This document shows, piece after piece, positions 25,611 through 36,233 of a stretch of 36,233 nt of DNA; the stretch's first letter is position 1; every line of letters begins with the position of its first letter. The position numbers were made by a program, and so were the translations under genes. The notes beneath the pieces are model-generated. The model was given only the letters and a program-made list of their open reading frames with translations, made no database searches and had not been told where the DNA came from. The stretch is from Elsinoe ampelina (lineage: Eukaryota), in the NCBI GenBank assembly GCA_010093995.1, contig ML992505.1:124001-160233 (forward strand), given 5' to 3'.

Positions 25611-26074
25611 AGTTGGTCAAACAGCTACGGCACCGTTCGCGTGGCGAGGAAGAACGGGGCAAGCATGATAAGCAGAGCAATGTTACTTAGTTGGCATTGA
25701 TCGAGCTTGGATGATAGGAGTCCTAGTTGACGGGGGTCACTGCGTCGTCCTGACATGGTTACTGCTTCGTACCTAATGCATCCGATTTAAACCCAGTCTC
25801 TCCATCAGCTTTGATCTGCTTGCTCATGATTGACATTCGCTTCAACGCCTAGTAATTGAATCAGAATAGTGCTCGAGCTCGATCCGAAAAGAGGACGATG
25901 CTTTAGAAGTGAATGTATCGGATTCGTTACTAAGCAACATCGAGATCAGCTGGCTTAGGCCCGAAAAGGCTATATCTCCCGAAGTTAGATAGAGTTTCCC
26001 TACCTCTTGATACCCTTGCTGGGTCATGTTGCTGCATTCATTTCTTATCACCATGCCTCGGACGTCCTTCCAAG

Positions 26075-27952
26075 ATGAACAGAGGCCTCCGGTCGGCAAA
26101 CGGGTGCTCGCAGTGCAGGTTAGGAAGAGTATGACAGAATGCGACGGTATCGTGAGATCTTGTTAACAGAATTGGCCAGGTCAAATGCGATGAGCGACAC
26201 CCGAAATGCGGGCGATGCAATAAGAGAAATACCTCCTGCGCATACGTAAAGACACTGAAGTGGTGTACTACGCAGACGACTCCACGGCTTACCAAAAGGC
26301 GCAAGTCTGATGTCCCTCGTGGTGCTGATCAGCGGAATCGCCCCTCTCGTAGCGTCGCCTCTGGAGATGACCATACCAACGTCTCGGATCCGCAAGACTG
26401 GTGTCCTACAGAACCTATTGAGCCAACATTACCGGTATCTCTATCGAATGACCTGTTCGAGCAAAGCCTAGACTGGGACCCGAACGAGCTGTCAGAGTCA
26501 TACCCGTCCTTGTACCTGTCAAATCTGGATCAGGATGACAACGTCGTGTCCGATCTGACTTGGACACTGGAGCCATATGGCAGCGACTTTGAAATTGGAC
26601 TTGGCATGATCGATCAAGGTGCACTTCTCATGGAGGTGTATTTCGACAGAGTAGCTCCGATCTTCTGCTGCTACGACGGAGGCAAGAACCCTTTCTACCA
26701 TCTCATCGCGCAAGCGTGGAGGAGTGATCGCAGGTCTTCAGACTATGCTCCACTCATCAGTGCGACTCAAGGCCTCGCTGCGGTGTTCCTGATGCAGGAC
26801 TCAATTTCCATGAGATCCCTTGCGGAGGATCTGCTGGAGCGAACCCAACAGCAGCTCTGCCGTATCTCCAGCGTCGAGCGGTATGATGTGAAGCATATAC
26901 TGGCTCTGTCTTTTCTCGGGATCAGCAGAATGTACAGCCAAGATCTGACATCCTCGCTCAGCGTACTGAACCAATTGCGGGACATACTCCAGTCTGAGAC
27001 GGTGGCTCCAAGTCACGGTTCCAGAGACGCAGCCTTACGCCAACGTGATCGCCGGTTCTCTTGGGGCCTACAATTGCACTGCGAAATGGTGTTCGCATGT
27101 ACTGATGCAAGATACCGACTGCCCTCTCTCGAAGCTTTCCAGTCGATGGAATGGGAGAATGCAACATCAAACATATGTCCACATCCTTTCACAGGCGTCT
27201 CGAGCGAGATCACCCACAGATTCCTTCAGGCTGTCCTGCTCGTCAAGCGTCATCGCGACTTGTCAAGAAACCAGAATTTCTGTTCACAGAAACACATCGC
27301 GAAGATACAAGCACTCATGTTCGATGCAGCAGCCTTGGAAGCAAAAGTAACATCAGACTGCCTCCCAGACAGGAGCTGCATCAAAAGTCCTGAGGACCGC
27401 ACCACGCCTGTTGAACACCTGATCAAGCTGGCCGAATGCTATCGCCACTCGACGCTGCTACTCATCTATCGCGTTTTTCCCGACGTGCTTGCCAAACGTC
27501 TTGGACACGGAGAGGCAGATATGGATACCAGTGACACAGCACGTGCAGTCAACAGCCATCTGTTGAGCATGGTCCTTGGAATCATCGGCCAGCTTTCTAC
27601 GATCCCGACCGAGTCAAGCACGACGCCATTTCAATGGATCATCCTACTAGCGGCATCGAGTGAGCTGAGGCTTCGAAATGATTATGTCTCGCGACTTTCG
27701 GAGATGGAGCCATCTGGCACACAACATTCGATTTCAGCTACGGACCCTCAAGTACTAAATACTGCGCTACAACGTGGTCGGAAGGAGGACGTGATCAAAT
27801 CTCGTGAGTTCGTCATCGCCAGGACAGAGGCATCTCAGAAGCGCATACCTGGCGGGAGGTTGCCAAGGTTGTTACACTTGATGAAGAAAGCGTGGTCGTT
27901 GCTTGACAGTGGTCAGACGGGAACTCATTGGTTGGATTTAATAGCAGATTGA
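26075..27952 (+). CDS. Zn(II)2Cys6 transcription factor with fungal-specific C-terminal domain
   Basis: Splicing intron 26119-26169 gives MNRGLRSANGCSQCRIGQVKCDERHPKCGRCNKRNTSCAY (six Cys). This is in frame with the 480-aa ORF containing 'YDGGKNPF', 'HPFTGVS' and 'YR...LL.IYRVFP'. Confidence 0.88.
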
Positions 27953-28160
27953 TGCGGTACATATACTTTGGGCGCTCTATGTATATCACAGTTCAACTCA
28001 AGCAAATTCGTCACAAGTGATCCATGAAAGAGATCTCGTAGATCGTTCCCTCTGATAGTCAATTACATGACCTAAGAGTCTGGAATCATACCTCTCGTTC
28101 AAGGAAACTATCATATCATGGATATTCCACTGTCTTCCCCACCCACCCCTCATCCAAGTT

Positions 28161-29937
28161 TTAAGCAGCTTTCAACCCCTTCTTAAACCTCACAGCCTCC
28201 CTACACGACCGCCAAAACCCCGGCGCGTTCGGATCCAGCGTTGCCTCATACGCATCAATAGCATTCCTCTCCCACACCAAATCCGCCTCATGCGCCTTTA
28301 CAATCTTCGTCCTCTTCACCACCTTCCACCCAAAGTACAACACCGGCGAAACCAACACCATAGCATAATAAGAAAAAAACGTCCCCGTCGACCACCACCC
28401 CGGCAAAAACGTCGTGTACCCATACATACCCACCGTCCAGGCCATGGAGACCAACCCGAACCACCCGCAAAACGGTTGCAGCCAGCCTTTATACGGGAGC
28501 GTGTCGCGGGAGACACCCTGCGCCTTCAACGCGCGGTGGAAGAAGAGGTACACGACGCTCATGCCGATGTAGTCGATCAGCTGCGCCGCTTCGGTCAGGT
28601 TGGCCAGCCAAGTGATGACCGCCGCGCTGCCCGAGTGCACCTGGAGGAAAGAAAGCAGGGGGAAGAGCATGGTGACGCCCAGCGCGTAGATGGGGATGCC
28701 GGTCCGCGTGCAGGTGCTGAAGACGTGCGGCGCGTGGCCGTCGATGGCCATGGCGTAGAGGGTGCGCGAGGCGCAGTAGACGTAGGAATTGCCCGCGGAG
28801 AAAATGGCCGTGACGAGGAGGGCGTTGGTGATGTGGGGGAGGACGGCGACGCCGAGGTTGGTCATGGCGATGACGTAGGGGGAGGCAGCGCCGGTGCCGG
28901 AGTCGGATCCGTTGAGTTTGACGATGAGGTTGGCGTCGTCGGAGGGGACGACGATGCCGACGCAGAGGGCGCCGCCGACGAAGAAGAGGGCGTAGCGGAT
29001 GTAGGTCGCTTTGAAGGCGGCTTTGAGGTTTTTGCGGGGGTGTTTCACTTCGCCCGCGACCATGGAGAGGTATTCTGGACCGACGATGGTGAAGGCGGCT
29101 TGGAAGAGTGCGCCGAGGTAGCCTTGGAATCGCCCGAGTGAGCCGGTGGAGATGTATTCTGCGAATGCCCCTGGATGGCGCCAGTATCGGAAGCCGTATG
29201 CGTCGTGCTTTGGGTTGCCACCCACCACTTGGCTAGGTCAGCACACGAGCTCTACACGGTCAAGTGGAGGTACCTACTGGTCACGAAGGTGAAGCAGAAG
29301 ACGATCAATATCAGGAGTACTTTGCCGCTGGCCAGCCAGAACTCACTCTCACCATAATATCTGACGGCGACGAGGTTCAAAAGTCTGTACGCAGATGAGC
29401 CCCTGAGATACGATCCGGCCAGGAGGTTGCAACATACCCGTATAGCACGATACATGCCGCGCAGACCGCCCCAATGGGTATATCATCCCGCCAGAAGGTC
29501 AAGACAAGGTTCAGAGCGGCAATCTCCCAAGGGATAAGGAAGCCCTGGTAGAGGAAGAAGTTCCAGCCGAGGGTGAAACCAAAAGCCTCGTCGACCCATT
29601 TGCTCGCCATACGGATCCAGCCACCGCTGACTGGCATGAAGATTGCCATCTCGGCCATGCTGTTGTTGACGGTTGCCAAGAAGAGACTGTACATGGTGAA
29701 GGCGATGAGAAGACTACCAGGGCCACCCTCGATCAAACCGAACCCAATGCTGACGAAGAGCGCTGTGCCAATCGTGCCGCCAATGGCTATTAGCTGGATC
29801 TGGCGGTTGCCGAGGGACCTGTGGAGGCCATGGATGTCCTCCGACTCGCCCAAGTTGTGGTCTTCATGTCCAGAGGGCTCTTGAATGCCTTGCTTGAAGC
29901 CTTTTTCATCTTCCATACTTTTACGGTGAACGCTCAT
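28161..29937 (-). CDS. Amino-acid permease (APC superfamily, YAT family, Agp2-like)
   Basis: Motifs 'LGNRQIQLIAIGGTIGTALF', 'YYGESEFWLASGK', 'FTIVGPE' and 'SAGNSYVYCASRTLY'. Introns at 29385-29437 and 29229-29277. Confidence 0.92.
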
Positions 29938-30394
29938 TTCAAGAATGGACAAGGGTTGTGGGCAAAGATGAGGTTGCGGAGCATTTGTGGATAGCCAAGG
30001 GAATACGACGGAGAGCGGAGGGCAGAGGTCTCAGAAATCGGAAGAGATGTGATGGAGAAAGAACAGAAACTTACAGGGTCTTAACTCGAATACTTGTGAA
30101 CGACAGGAATCGCCTTCAAATTGTGTAAAACAGAGCAGAACTAATTGCCGGGTTCCGATGACACACTTTGAGGTGGAGTTGCGCCTTACCCGATTTGGGT
30201 ACCCGTGTCGAGAGACTCCATACTGGAATCTCATCCCATGTATCAATCATACTTCTTCCGGCAACAATCGAAAAGACAACTACCAGATTATCGCATACCA
30301 ATAGTGATGAATAGAGATATCGCTTCTGTCCTGCACCTTTTGCAGTCGACCTTGCCCGTACTGCTCAACGCACAAGCAGTGGCAACAACGGAAA

Positions 30395-31855
30395 ATGTCG
30401 AACTTGGATGAAGACGTCTTCGACCCGGCTGTCAGTAGTGATCCTAGAGCAGGTGAAATGTATTTCTGATGAACCCAGATACATCTGGCATACTCTCCGC
30501 CAAAAGATGTCTTCACGCTTGCAGACCTTGGCATCGAGGAGAATCGTTACACGACCCCTGTCGCTGGATGCAAACCCTTCAAGTTCCTGTCTAGAGAAGG
30601 GGTACTGGCTTACCGGAGAGCAATCTTGAGATGCCATGTATTCGATCAGTGCGGCGGACATCCTTTCCCAGGCACTGTCACCCTTCGTAATGTCGCGAGA
30701 GTGTCACCTTTCGTTCGTGATTTATGGACACATCCTCAAACCTTGGCTATCATGTCTGCAATCCTCGGCACCAAAATCGATGTGGTCATGCCAACGGAAA
30801 CCGGCCACACCAATATTCAGGTCACAGGGGCTGGAGATGTTCTAGAGCAATTGAGCGTCGAACCGACGATGGCGGCATTCTCAGCAGCCGGGCAGGAAGA
30901 AGAAACCTACGATCCACTCTCTGGTAGTTCAGTCATTCCTTGGCAGTAAGTTACACAGCGTTCTTGCCCTGGCCCCTGTCCAGAATTGACAATCATCAGT
31001 TACGACTCTTATCCTTACGTGTGCATAATCATGCTTAGCGATACCACAAACATGAGAGGCGGAGAGACATTCATCAGTGGACGAGAGATACAAGCTGTAA
31101 GGATATGACATGACATGGAACGCTCCCGACTCACACTGAGATCACAGGTTGAGGGACCCACTTTGGGGACAGCTGTGCTCCTCCAAGGAGGAAAAGTGAA
31201 GCATCTTGCAGCTCGCACGTTCGGAAGTGCCGAAAGGATCACGACCATCACGTCTTTCCGAGCCGATGTAGCAGGCACCTGGGACGACAGCTATTTGGCC
31301 AATCTTCGGGCCTATGATAACCTGCCTGTTCTCTATCAGCAATGGTCCCGATATCGTCTAGCCAAAATTCGCAACGAGATCGACCTGGCGTTGACGAAGA
31401 TTGAATCTGCCGAGGCAGCCGAAGCGGAGTTTCCTCGCGTCGAGCTCGAAGATCTGTGTGAGAGGCTATCCGAGTATGCCAGAAGGACGGCCAGTCAAAT
31501 CGTGGATCCTCGAATCCGCGACCGTCTTGCTGCAAAGTATGGCTCGGACGGTATCGCCAAAGCGGGGAGCATGTGGCAAAAACTCAGATCTCGAAACCAT
31601 ACCGCCGCTGCTATCACAGGGGCGACCAAGTATGCAGAGGACAACATGCCGGAGATGCGCAAGTATATCCTGGACTGGTGTCAGACTAGGGCGCGATTGC
31701 TTCGGGGATCGAAAGAAACTGGGACTCAAGGCAGCGTTGAGTACGATGCAACGGTGGAGTACCTGTTGGGAGACGAGCTGTTGCGGCAAGGACTTGTGGA
31801 GATTCTGCTTCCTTGGATGGATACTACGAAGCTTTTGTCTTTGCTAGATGAGTGA
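30395..31855 (+). CDS. Uncharacterised fungal Fe(II)/2-oxoglutarate dioxygenase-fold protein
   Basis: Introns at 30431-30478, 30946-30999 and 31097-31147 give MSNLDEDVFDPAIHLAY...IPWHYDSYPYVCIIMLSD..GGET...LLQGGKVKHLA....ERITTITSF. This has an HxD...H facial triad and a candidate 2OG-binding Arg. Confidence 0.8.
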
Positions 31856-31948
31856 GATGAGCGCGCATCAACGGTGCGATATTGCTGTAGATTGGTACAC
31901 GAACGCAATCTGGAAGACTAAGCTGCAATAATCTGCTTATCTCATATG

Positions 31949-32609
31949 TCAACCATCGCTATTCTTTATATACATTTTCAACCCTTTCAGCCTCGACATC
32001 GCTTCATCCAAGACGCCGTCTTCTTTGCAAACCGCGAAACGCAACCAATCACCAACTCCTGCTGCATTCTCGTCGGTAAAGAACTCGGATGCAGGAATCG
32101 CCGCAACGCCCAACTCTTGGATCAGGAACGACGGCAAATGGAAATCTCGACGTCGTGTGCTGACATGTTCTGGGAACGAATAGCCTTCTGGTAATCGTAC
32201 CCTTGAAAAATCGACTAACACAAAATATCCTCCTTGAGGAGAGGAGAACTGCAACCAAACATCAGACTCATCGCCAAAGGATTCGCCGTGGGATGGATGG
32301 ACATACCTGCAAGCCCAGCTCGATCCAGATCTGATTGAAGTAATCAATCTTGCCCCTTATCAGCTCCCTTGACCGATCCCAAAACCCAAGCTCACCAGCC
32401 TTCTCCAGCCCGATAGCAACTGCTTCTTGAAGTGGGCTGACAGTGCTAAAGCATATACGCGTATGTGCCGTGCTGACATGCTGGATCAGCTCCGCAGGCC
32501 CGATCAACCACCCGACGCGCCAGCCTGTGCAGTAGAAGCATTTCCCTGCCGACCTGACGGTGAGCGTTCGACGTGCGAGCTGTAGAGAGAGGGTGGCGAA
32601 GCGGGTGAA
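31949..32609 (-). pseudogene. 3' half of a class I PLP aminotransferase (kynurenine aminotransferase, Bna3/KAT-like); 5' half missing
   Basis: Reads FTRFATLS...TLTVRSAGKCFYCTGWRVGWLIGP...HTRICFSTVSPLQEA, intron 32249-32306, then PQGGYFVLVDF...GVAAIPASEF...LRFAVCK. There is an in-frame TGA just upstream of FTR, and no N-terminal domain, SDEVY motif or start codon. Confidence 0.85.
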
Positions 32610-33224
32610 TTTTCATCTACGGCATCACCTCACAGTCCGTGTTCCCCTCGGGCGTCATCTACAAAGACCAACTCGGAGACGCACCCCAAGCCTTCCGCGG
32701 CGAGTCCGGCGCCAACGACTCCATCATCCCTTTGCTGGACCACCTCTGCGAAATCCCCATGCCGGAGAACCCGCTCACGCAGATCCTGAGGGAGTTTTCG
32801 CGAGTACAGACCGCGACCGCATCGGGAGTTTCTCAAGCTGATACGGGAGTCTGCGGAACGTCTCGGCACGAGGGAGTTTCTCACTGGCGATATAGGGCTG
32901 GCAGTGCTGTGTATTCGGGTGCTGGACCATGTGAGGAGTTTTCGTTGGCGGCATTGGCAGTTTACGAGGGAGTATATCATCAAGCGGACGAGTCATCCGG
33001 TGGCGACGGGGGGGAGTCCGATTATTACGTGGTTGCCGAATCAGTTGAGCGCGGTGATGCAGTTGATGGATGATGTGGCGATGACGAGGGGGGTTTAGGA
33101 TATGATCAGGGGTGGGAAGGCATCTGAGCTAGCCGTGATTAGGGATATCATAGAAAATGTAGTGAGTCAGAAGGAGAAGCTCGCAAAGGAGGTGGCCAAG
33201 TATTGTCAGGATAGAGGTGTGTGA
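32609..33224 (+). pseudogene. 3' part of an indoleamine 2,3-dioxygenase (fungal IDO-gamma/IdoC-like), with frameshift and premature stop
   Basis: Reads IFIYGITSQSVFP...FRGESGANDSIIP...LREF, +1 frameshift in TTTT at about 32795-32798, then REYRPRPHREFL...RWRHWQFTREYII...ATGGSPIITWLPNQL. Premature TAG at 33096-33098; native-looking end KEVAKYCQDRGV* at 33224. Confidence 0.88.
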
Positions 33225-33273: not shown

Positions 33274-34540
33274 TCAAGAGATGACGAGATCCTCCGTCTG
33301 TTTGGCTAGCCATGCACCTTGATCCAATTGTGGTGGGTGCACCCATGTAGTCTGCTGGTGTGAGACTCCATTCTCGTCTTGATAGGCACGGTAGTCGCCT
33401 TCACTACCGGTGAAGGTGCGAGCCGTGAATGGTCGTCGACCTTTGAGGGGAGTTGACGACGAAGTCTGACCAGAGAATGCGTCTTTGATGAGACGATCAA
33501 TATTCTTTTGTGTACTTGGGGTGGTTGGGTGATTGAACTCGACAAGATTTCCGTCCGGAGAAGGATAGAAATGGCGTGCAGGTAGGACTTCGACATCCAT
33601 GATGGGCAGGACGCGATGGAAGATATCATGGGTATGTATCTCACGCTGTATGTGTTCTTGTCGCACGTGTTCGACATGCTGGTTCACCTTCTCATGCGTG
33701 ACAGCTATGTGGCAAGTCAGCATAGCATTCGCGAGGACTTTCACAGTACTTACCCGGTGCCCAAGTTTCGTGAATCGATGTGTCTACAGTGTTGGTAAGG
33801 TCGAGCTCATGCGGCTTGATTTCGATCCCTGGCGGTTCGATGATCGCTGCCTGAGCTCCGGTGACAGACTGGTCCTCAAATCTTTGCACCGCTGGCACCT
33901 GAGGTGACTCTTTCGGCGACTCCCCAGCTACCGGTTTTCTGAGAATGGTATGCACAGACTTGTCATCGCCATGGCAAACCTCAGGCTCCGTCTCGGCTGC
34001 CCTGACCAGAGTAGGGGAAGATCTGGCCTGGCGCTTCTCACGATGTGTGACAGCCGGTCCTTCTGGTGCTCCGTGGCGAGTCCCTGATGAAGAAGTCTTG
34101 CGGCCGGGATCCGATGATTTTGTTTGCCTTTCATGGGAGTCCTTCGCATTTTCACGTATGTACGAGCCGACATCGATACTGTGACAATTTGGTCTGATCA
34201 CTGTGACTTGTCAGTGGTCAGCTTTGCATACACATCTACGGACCCCCATACCATCCCTATTCAATACAGACCGGTCGATCCTATGGAGGTCCTCCAGTAT
34301 GACTGACCGGCGAGCGCTGGACTGTTTTCGGACTTTGGCAGTATCAGTATCGAGTACATCCCGTGGAGTTTTGCGAATGACATGGTAGCCTTTAGGATCA
34401 TTGGGATCTACCAAGGCCGGAAGGATGAGCACGCTTCCACGATTGCCCTCTGATGACTGGCGAGATGTGACAGGATTTGTATTTCCGGAAATGTCGTTCT
34501 CGCGTGCTCGGGGTGAGAACAGATTCTTGAATTTGCGCAT
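33274..34540 (-). CDS. Hypothetical protein with a His-rich 'EIHTHDIFHRVLPIMDVEVLPARHF' segment
   Basis: ATG 34540 (MRKFKNLF). GT-AG introns at 34201-34251 and 33705-33753 join three ORF-track frames in phase. Confidence 0.65.
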
Positions 34541-35049: not shown

Positions 35050-36233
35050 ATCGACTATGTATGTGCTAACTTATTAGTACTAGTTCTTTAGTACTAGAGA
35101 AGCTATACTAGCCTTCTATTATAACACTTCCTCTCTAGTATAGATTATTAAAGCTAAAGAACTATCCTATTACATATAAGTAAAGTAATTAGCTTATTAC
35201 TTTATCTCTTTATAATTGCTTATAATTGTTAGTATTAGCTAATTATTAGTAAGAATTTACTATTAGTTTAGCTTATAATTGCTAGTAATAATAGTAACTA
35301 TTAATAATAGCTAGGTAGCTATTATTTATATAAATAGACTAGCTTATAAGTCTTAATTAAAGAGATATAAGTATCTAACTAGCCTCTTTATAATTTCTCC
35401 TTTCTTTATTATACTTATAGTAGTAGCCTTTTCTTTTATATAACACTTTTACCTTCTTACTATACTATATTAATAATACTTATAATATAAGTACTATAGT
35501 ATAGTAATAGCTAGGTATTAGTAGTATTACTACTAGTGCTAGTACTCTAAGTAGTCTACTAGGTAGCAGAGGTAGTAGTAAGAAGAGAAATTCTCTATTA
35601 AGGTTACCTAGTACTTCTAATATTAATTATAATACTACTATAAGACTAATTACTTATCTTAATACTCTTAGTAAGTAGCTATAAAGCATTAATAGTATAA
35701 GCTAACATTAATAGCCTAATTAACTTAGACTTTGACTTAATAGTTAGCCGACATAATCTAGAATACTCTCCTTAGGCTTAGGATAATTAGTTATTATAAC
35801 TATACTAACTTATATCCTATCTAGAGGTCTATAGTAGTCTAAGCCTTTAGTACCTATAGTATACACCTAGTAGTTACTAATCCTATTCTAGTTAAAGATC
35901 TAACTAAGTAAGTTAACCTTACTAGATCTACTAACTACTCTACTACTTTAATAGCTTCTAGTACTACTAGTAGAGTAGTCTACTATAGTACTAATCGCTA
36001 TACTAAGTGTTAGAGATCTAACCCTAGTAATAATTAAAGCAAGAGTAGGGGTAGTAAGTTTAGTAAGTATATTACTTTACCTAGTTAGCTTAATAAGGCC
36101 TATACTTGCTATACTTATAGCAACTAATATGCTAGATATTCCTTAGCTAACTATACTCTAACTCTAAGGCCTATTAGCTCTCCTAAACCTATAAGGACTC
36201 TAAGTAGCTTAAGAGTTATTACCTAGCCTATTC
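35050..36233. repeat. AT-rich RIP-mutated repeat, probably a transposon relic (class not identifiable)
   Basis: Abrupt switch to AT-rich sequence dense in TpA (TAG/CTA/TAA/TAT), with CpA/TpG almost absent. The ORF track lists nothing beyond 35025. Confidence 0.88.

Follow-up and report, generated by a model that had tools for sequence, protein, structure and literature searches.

The window analysed here is a 36,233-nucleotide stretch of the Elsinoe ampelina genome (28.3 Mb in 161 contigs; positions 124001-160233 of contig G000:C5). It contains a locus that a preliminary description had read as a self-contained five-gene cluster for tryptophan (Trp) or kynurenine conversion, comprising a Zn(2)Cys6 transcription factor (TF), an amino-acid permease, an orphan Fe(II)/2-oxoglutarate (2OG) dioxygenase, a Bna3-type kynurenine aminotransferase (KAT) and a gamma-type indoleamine 2,3-dioxygenase (IDO-gamma). 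We found that this locus very probably consists of two parts, a working TF/permease/dioxygenase module and the wreck of an IDO-gamma/KAT pair. On balance we favour the view that the three intact genes are an undescribed module for importing and hydroxylating an amino-acid-like compound, placed beside the decayed IDO-KAT pair. All five gene families are recognisable at the coordinates, in the order and on the strands reported before, four of them by Pfam profiles (PF00172 and PF11951, PF00324, PF00155 and PF01231); of the five packed genes, however, only three are whole, KAT and IDO being half-gene remnants.

The TF, permease and dioxygenase genes are intact and transcribed. The spliced TF model and the dioxygenase model are identical to proteins listed under Elsinoe ampelina (P0010 and P0158, respectively), and the permease model has no internal stop. 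All predicted introns of the three genes were skipped in contigs of run X3, and both permease introns were skipped also in X4 and X5. X3 comes from another study, and X4 and X5 are sequence-divergent samples from other studies; all three were judged to be RNA from their spliced joints, not from record labels, and contig depth can neither rank expression nor speak to co-regulation. The best NCBIfam match of the permease, which presumably resembles yeast Agp2, was TIGR00913, below cut-off on single exons. Of the two divergent pairs proposed earlier, that of permease and dioxygenase is a true one, with 457 bp between the genes.

The supposed second pair is a deletion junction. The KAT and IDO genes are each short of the N-terminal 56-58% plus the promoter. 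The best solved-structure match of the KAT remnant was yeast Bna3 (PDB 3B46, E 1.6e-24) and its pyridoxal phosphate (PLP)-lysine motif is present, but of the 361 positions of the PF00155 profile it covers only 211-299. Its first residue aligns with residue 252 of the yeast protein (447 aa), the N-terminal ~250 aa being gone; it has no start codon, and its first Met is residue 185 of 200. The IDO remnant corresponds to residues 293-505 of the full-length 505-aa E. batatas orthologue P0029 (93% identical by tblastn). Its reading frame shifts by +1 near 32795, a Trp of the orthologue is replaced by a stop (33096-33098), and there is a gap of 10 codons. The two homologies abut at 32609 and 32612, two bases apart, and because start codons, a promoter and intergenic DNA are all missing between them, the apparent tight packing of KAT and IDO is a deletion scar. 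A 17-kb DNA contig of X1, a run that could stem from the source sample, and an X3 contig both cross the junction without any difference; the junction is therefore not an assembly slip. We did not find the orthologous 5′ halves in the whole assembly (queries P0029 and an exon of the intact KAT, with 5 and 6 genome matches): all that the N-terminus of P0029 matched was a 49%-identical paralogue, and no other aminotransferase exceeded 33% identity. Nor were they found in the 40 kb beyond the window, although unassembled or unreadable DNA could hide them. A reciprocal inversion was rejected on the lack of 5′ halves among the genome matches and in those 40 kb.

These remnants cannot make kynurenine or kynurenate, and an intact five-gene cluster is ruled out by the half-length KAT and the frameshifted, stop-bearing, half-length IDO. 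Among 15 amino-acid differences between the IDO remnant and P0029, 7 window-derived and 0 E. batatas-derived changes fell at conserved columns (those kept in at least 4 of 7 other IDO homologues), and selection on the remnant has therefore been released. Repeat-induced point mutation (RIP) was rejected as the cause of decay, since the composite indices of both remnants are negative and a RIP-type transition accounts for the single stop alone. The junction makes it likely that a divergent IDO-gamma/KAT pair once stood at this locus, an adjacency that we have not seen in any genome. Such a pair would have turned Trp towards kynurenate. A single deletion would then have removed both 5′ halves plus the DNA between them, tolerated as paralogues met the need, and the IDO half would have decayed afterwards.

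The KAT-remnant intron was spliced in X3, probably by minus-strand read-through from the flanking gene at 33274-34540. In one X3 RNA contig (window 30275-34851) introns are spliced out of the dioxygenase (+), KAT remnant (-) and flanking gene (-) alike; this suggests minus-strand read-through that runs across both remnants and into the 3′ end of the dioxygenase, although the contig does not prove one transcript. An X4 contig on the IDO remnant (depth 4.9, 349 nt) begins at the junction without a loose end, lacks the frameshift and has another one-base gap. Over the KAT remnant, X4 and X5 had hardly any contig cover, from which nothing follows. These two samples contain a second sequence type across window 26000-33000. 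It diverges by 0.1-4% in the intact genes and by ~6% over the IDO remnant, and may carry a less decayed IDO allele.

The kynurenine and kynurenate steps are covered by intact paralogues at other places in the genome. There are four other IDO-family genes, one of them an intact IDO-gamma and another the partner of a kynureninase-like open reading frame (ORF; L002), and an intact Bna3-type KAT, to which the KAT remnant is 62-64% identical, lies on another contig (G000:C7). The fourth IDO-family gene is divergent (L003, G000:C1:2262550-2263926); its neighbours, going by their translations, we take to be a MOSC-like ORF and a patatin-like ORF. In a quick IQ-TREE maximum-likelihood tree of 124 C-terminal sequences, in which the remnant fills 41% of the columns, the IDO remnant fell in a 25-row clade with E. 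batatas, Aureobasidium, Fusarium, Clonostachys and Microdochium proteins (Shimodaira-Hasegawa-like approximate likelihood-ratio test, SH-aLRT, 98). This clade takes in the cluster holding FGSG_09040, named FgIDOC in the accessible text of PMC11509934, and on its tree position the remnant is an IDO-gamma of the FgIDOC clade. The intact IDO-gamma of the genome grouped apart from it in the same quick tree, with two Pleosporales proteins. Thus the Elsinoe and Aureobasidium members of the clade join Sordariomycete FgIDOC-type proteins and not the other IDO-gamma of the genome, for which an old duplication and a transfer are both candidate explanations. IDO-gamma enzymes had been labelled poor Trp oxidisers, a label that is not settled because the accessible parts of two studies disagree: work on A. 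oryzae suggests that IDO-alpha and -beta alone act in Trp catabolism (PMC7448278), and A. nidulans idoC is induced by Trp and complements yeast bna2 (PMC11530996).

We found that TF, permease and dioxygenase are linked beyond one genus, across two fungal orders. Dioxygenase homologues were present at 17 metagenome loci, 6 close (58-66% identity) and 11 distant (34-50%, several short); one of the close loci, L017, carries the A. pullulans-type dioxygenase P0007. The permease is head-to-head with the dioxygenase in 5 of the 6 close loci (L012, L013, L014, L016 and L017), the sixth having 694 bp upstream, and a TF orthologue follows the dioxygenase in all three close loci with downstream DNA. The TF and dioxygenase locus tags are consecutive in 12/12 Aureobasidium strains displaying both (E4T43, KCU61, KCU81, KCU85, KCU95, D6C77, D6C91, D6C92, D6C95, D6D12, D6D13 and D6D15), and the two genes are fused into one model in two annotations (P0003 and P0027). 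The TF lies on opposite sides of the module in Elsinoe and Aureobasidium. No KAT or IDO match was found near the dioxygenase within 10 kb on each side in L017, 5.3 kb downstream in L012 and 7 kb upstream in L016. Tags of FgIDOC-clade IDO genes were far from the module in 4/4 Aureobasidium strains (KCU61, KCU95, E4T50 and D6C79) and far from a sister-subfamily dioxygenase (P0159 cluster, ~45% identity) in 6/6 strains of the Fusarium solani complex (NCS52, NCS54, NCS55, NCS57, LCI18 and NW754); of these ten strains, six were judged unlinked by separate single contigs and four by tag order alone. The self-contained module of the preliminary description thus survives as TF, permease and dioxygenase, without KAT and IDO as members, and the linkage it expected between IDO and the other genes in other fungi was not borne out in these ten strains.

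Several further features were seen at the metagenome loci. The 7-mer GTCTCGA occurs three times in the permease/dioxygenase promoter of L017 (9311-9900) and five times in that of L016 (6441-6960), both Aureobasidium-like, with 0.15-0.19 expected and 0/200 shuffles reaching these counts; the motif, which was picked by eye, is a candidate TF binding site, and no exact copy is present in the window's permease/dioxygenase promoter. A gene resembling a nonribosomal peptide synthetase (NRPS), with AMP-binding and PP-binding domains, lies directly downstream of the permease at L016:826-4404 and does not recur in L017. In L026 (890-4146), an Atg22-like transporter stands head-to-head with a more distantly related homologue of the dioxygenase, and an acyl-CoA dehydrogenase follows further downstream.

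The dioxygenase had no Pfam, NCBIfam or solved-structure oxygenase match by sequence. Its family comprises 779 representatives at 50% identity (E<=0.001), mainly ascomycete, plus a few bacterial clusters; one query found no second family copy in the genome. We modelled P0001, a 91%-identical orthologue of the window's dioxygenase, from 119 sequences. The model (predicted local distance difference test, pLDDT, 94.7; predicted template-modelling score, pTM, 0.91) forms a double-stranded beta-helix whose top fold matches are 2OG oxygenases. The best match was HalB (Z 15.7, root-mean-square deviation 3.1, 203 residues aligned), which also came first of 48,161 chains in an unbiased fold search, with the next entries within ~1 Z unit; other matches were a viral lysyl hydroxylase (Z 14.9), HalD (14.8), BesD (14.5) and Hydrox (14.3). 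HalD was also the nearest named family in Atlas (structure row 5, template-modelling score 0.40/0.67), and PF23169, the BesD/HalD family, was matched by 9/119 family members at E<=0.1 (best 1e-7), though not by P0001. Residues ~6-260 match BesD-type folds, and the C-terminal ~175 residues are helical and barely covered by the comparison. Among the most conserved columns are H168 (103/104), D170 (101/103), H219 (101/109) and R230 (103/110), followed by R82 (81/93) and E119 (94/106), with N124, D246 and R270 strongly conserved too. H168-x-D170...H219 is the predicted iron triad and R230 the putative 2OG-binding Arg; on its modelled fold, triad and Arg, the dioxygenase belongs to the Fe(II)/2OG dioxygenase superfamily. 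In this superfamily, Gly or Ala replacing the triad Asp marks the halogenase type, and a kept Asp goes with hydroxylation, not halogenation. The halogenase-type triad was not seen here, and because the triad Asp is kept the enzyme is expected to hydroxylate rather than halogenate. According to the accessible part of PMC10041140, a hairpin in HalB binds the substrate carboxylate via Arg83; the dioxygenase model has a hairpin at 71-81, then R82, and its structural ranges are colinear with HalB.

We lean slightly towards a free amino acid as what the dioxygenase hydroxylates; this is the likeliest substrate because of the fold, the linked amino-acid permease and the Atg22-like transporter beside the distant homologue in L026. 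Trp, to which nothing points specially, is a less likely candidate than an aliphatic or non-proteinogenic amino acid. For this genome the Trp/kynurenine interpretation lacks support, both kynurenine-pathway genes being half-gene remnants and the dioxygenase fold not being indole-specific. We propose that the TF would respond to an amino-acid-like compound derived from plant tissue or the plant's surface by switching on the permease and dioxygenase, which would be driven from one divergent promoter. The permease would import the compound and the dioxygenase would hydroxylate an unactivated C-H bond in a 2OG-coupled reaction, in which the conserved Arg82 would hold the alpha-carboxylate as Arg83 does in HalB. 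Hydroxylation would open the compound to catabolism or detoxification, with breakdown then left to unlinked enzymes.

A number of observations weigh against this import-and-hydroxylate reading. The fold is not peculiar to BesD: lysyl hydroxylases of viral and human origin (Z 14.9-14.1) score within 1 of HalB, as does an unnamed oxygenase from Burkholderia (14.6). Identity is only 12-16%, and searches found no sequence-level tie to solved BesD-family chains. The proposed equivalence of R82 and Arg83 follows colinear numbering, not a residue-level superposition. The Aureobasidium strains are close kin, which makes the linkage evidence that of one genus plus Elsinoe; permease or TF was found in 0/11 distant loci, and the module may be restricted to Dothideales/Myriangiales. 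KAT linkage was examined in three flanks only (L012, L016 and L017). The module contains no downstream catabolic enzyme, and co-regulation by the resident TF is a prediction from sequence.

We regard as rather unlikely the alternative that Elsinoe had an ancestral five-gene Trp cluster, in which the module recruited the IDO-gamma/KAT pair, so that Trp would be taken up, opened at its ring, hydroxylated and transaminated to a hydroxy-kynurenate-like product, and which is intact in E. batatas and half lost here. The full-length E. batatas IDO P0029 does share one 1,885,361-bp contig with orthologues of the dioxygenase and of three other window genes, and a junction of two consecutive kynurenine-pathway genes would arise more easily from an adjacent ancestral pair than by chance. 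A pair of idoB/kynureninase type also exists in this genome (L002), and fungal pairs of that type have a bidirectional promoter, as the accessible text of PMC11530996 describes. However, the module occurs without IDO/KAT in Aureobasidium and the IDO clade without a nearby dioxygenase in Fusarium, and the three genes here are still intact and expressed after the loss of the pair, hence independent of it. The E. batatas tags are not positional: reading tags 7012 and 6682 as a separation of 330 genes was rejected, as three adjacent window genes have tags 6714, 7180 and 7227. Moreover, no E. batatas TF orthologue was among the 20 matches listed. We likewise think it improbable that Elsinoe ancestors joined the module and the IDO-gamma/KAT pair into a pathway from Trp to a hydroxylated kynurenate-type product via a eukaryotic BesD-fold hydroxylase, kept in E. 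batatas and recently collapsed here. If the five-gene reading were true, it would assign IDO-gamma a defined role and provide a first substrate for the orphan family of dioxygenases.

It is also unlikely that the module is real but that its dioxygenase acts on a betaine, a modified histidine (hercynine, or an ergothioneine- or ovothiol-related compound) or another non-amino-acid. The fold ties with non-BesD enzymes would accommodate such a substrate, and so would the presumed likeness of the permease to yeast Agp2 and the cyanobacterial relatives, found at 5 loci: they lie near egtD (TIGR03438 above cut-off) in L046, L047 and L049, and in the latter two between an unannotated radical S-adenosylmethionine (SAM)-like ORF and an ovoA-type sulfoxide synthase (TIGR04344). 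These proteins share only 27% identity and belong to a single lineage, however, the context in L050 differs, and neither a methyltransferase nor a sulfoxide synthase is found near the fungal genes. The L047/L049 arrangement is possibly an undescribed thiohistidine operon (loci L049:2668-8612, L047:811-5823 and L046:2356-5997). Very unlikely, finally, is that KAT and IDO were never a pair and that the junction is an assembly error or the breakpoint of a larger rearrangement uniting unrelated loci: the 161-contig genome may be incomplete, there is a 20-kb repeat block at a distance of 2 kb and ancestral KAT-IDO adjacency has not been directly observed, but the junction is unchanged in X1 and X3, no reciprocal 5′-5′ junction was found, and the frameshift, stop and excess substitutions are those of true decay.

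Features of the five-family region and its right flank (window coordinates).
Feature	Positions	Strand	Details and evidence
Zn(2)Cys6 transcription factor, 608 aa, intact	26075..27952	+	intron 26129-26179; PF00172, PF11951; RNA contig X3
Amino-acid permease, YAT/APC type, 557 aa, intact	28161..29937	-	introns 29385-29437, 29228-29277; PF00324; X3, X4, X5
Divergent intergenic region, 457 bp, between permease and dioxygenase	29938..30394	.	sequence
Orphan-family Fe(II)/2OG dioxygenase (predicted), 435 aa, intact	30395..31855	+	introns 30431-30478, 30946-30999, 31097-31147; fold, triad
Bna3/KAT-type aminotransferase 3′ remnant, 200 codons	31949..32609	-	intron 32249-32306; PF00155; Bna3 alignment
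Deletion junction, KAT and IDO remnants head to head	32609..32612	.	ends of both homologies
FgIDOC-clade IDO-gamma 3′ remnant, residues 293-505	32612..33224	+	tblastn of P0029; tree
Flanking hypothetical gene	33274..34540	-	introns 33705-33753, 34201-34251, skipped in X3 and X5; start approximate
AT-rich RIP-type repeat block, start	35050..36233	.	GC 0.28; composite RIP index 2.08

The five-family region is flanked by a neutral-trehalase-like ORF on one side and by the AT-rich RIP block on the other. Judged by translations, the genes to its left are housekeeping-like; protein-collection names identify an aldehyde dehydrogenase, a protein phosphatase and a CAP10 glycosyltransferase among them, and from the translations we take others to be a phospholipase D, a chitin synthase and a trehalase. 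The composite RIP index is 2.08 in the block as against -0.5 to -0.9 in genes. The placement between housekeeping genes and a RIP block therefore stands as first described, with one extra hypothetical gene (33274-34540) between the IDO remnant and the block. This gene had no Pfam match above cut-off and is not present at Aureobasidium-like loci, and its membership in the module is without support. The block extends over ~20 kb in the genome, continuing in L042-L043, and His/Glu-rich hypothetical genes, similar by eye only, border it on both sides (window 33274-34540 and L044:956-2014).

A literature search, which covered few subscription papers, returned no description of the module or of an IDO-gamma/KAT pair. 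The module is undescribed but conventional-looking, a regulator, permease and enzyme of which the last is an orphan 2OG dioxygenase. The dioxygenase family is large and uncharacterised, with no solved relative by sequence, and its linkage to a permease and a regulator offers a route to the substrate. If the proposed reading is true, the enzyme would be a fungal C-H hydroxylase of free amino acids with a BesD-like fold, of interest for biocatalysis and for phyllosphere nutrition. From the broken pair one may suspect an IDO-gamma/KAT unit new to the searched literature, and the locus holds a lesson for annotation, as the five-gene 'kynurenine cluster' is here partly a deletion scar.

Among known systems, the idoB-kynureninase pair and the NRPS clusters for terreazepine, nanangelenin and aspcandine are, in the accessible parts of PMC11530996 and PMC7448278, precedents for a divergent IDO unit and for duplicated IDOs in special pathways. 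Those involve IDO-alpha/beta-type enzymes with kynureninase or an NRPS, whereas here IDO-gamma stands with KAT, without a backbone enzyme, and both are broken. The IDO remnant is like FgIDOC (FGSG_09040) and Aspergillus IdoC by clade, but is a 5′-less, frameshifted pseudogene and the second IDO-gamma of its genome. The KAT remnant is like yeast Bna3 and kynurenine aminotransferases (PDB 3B46) by homology and PLP-lysine motif, and unlike them in running from residue 252 onward with no start. BesD, HalB, HalD and Hydrox (PF23169; PDB 6NIE, 7U6J, 7U6H and 7JSD) are the best fold matches of the dioxygenase (Z 14.3-15.7) and share with it a beta-hairpin plus a colinearly placed conserved Arg, and W-H-x at the first iron ligand. 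In the dioxygenase, by contrast, the triad Asp is kept, ~175 C-terminal helical residues are added, the host is eukaryotic, identity is 12-16%, lysyl hydroxylases tie in Z and PF23169 does not match the window's orthologue. Small fungal utilisation clusters, for example those for proline and quinate, combine a regulator, a transporter and an enzyme. The module resembles these in having a Zn2Cys6 factor beside a divergent permease/enzyme pair, and differs from them in that its single enzyme is of an uncharacterised family.

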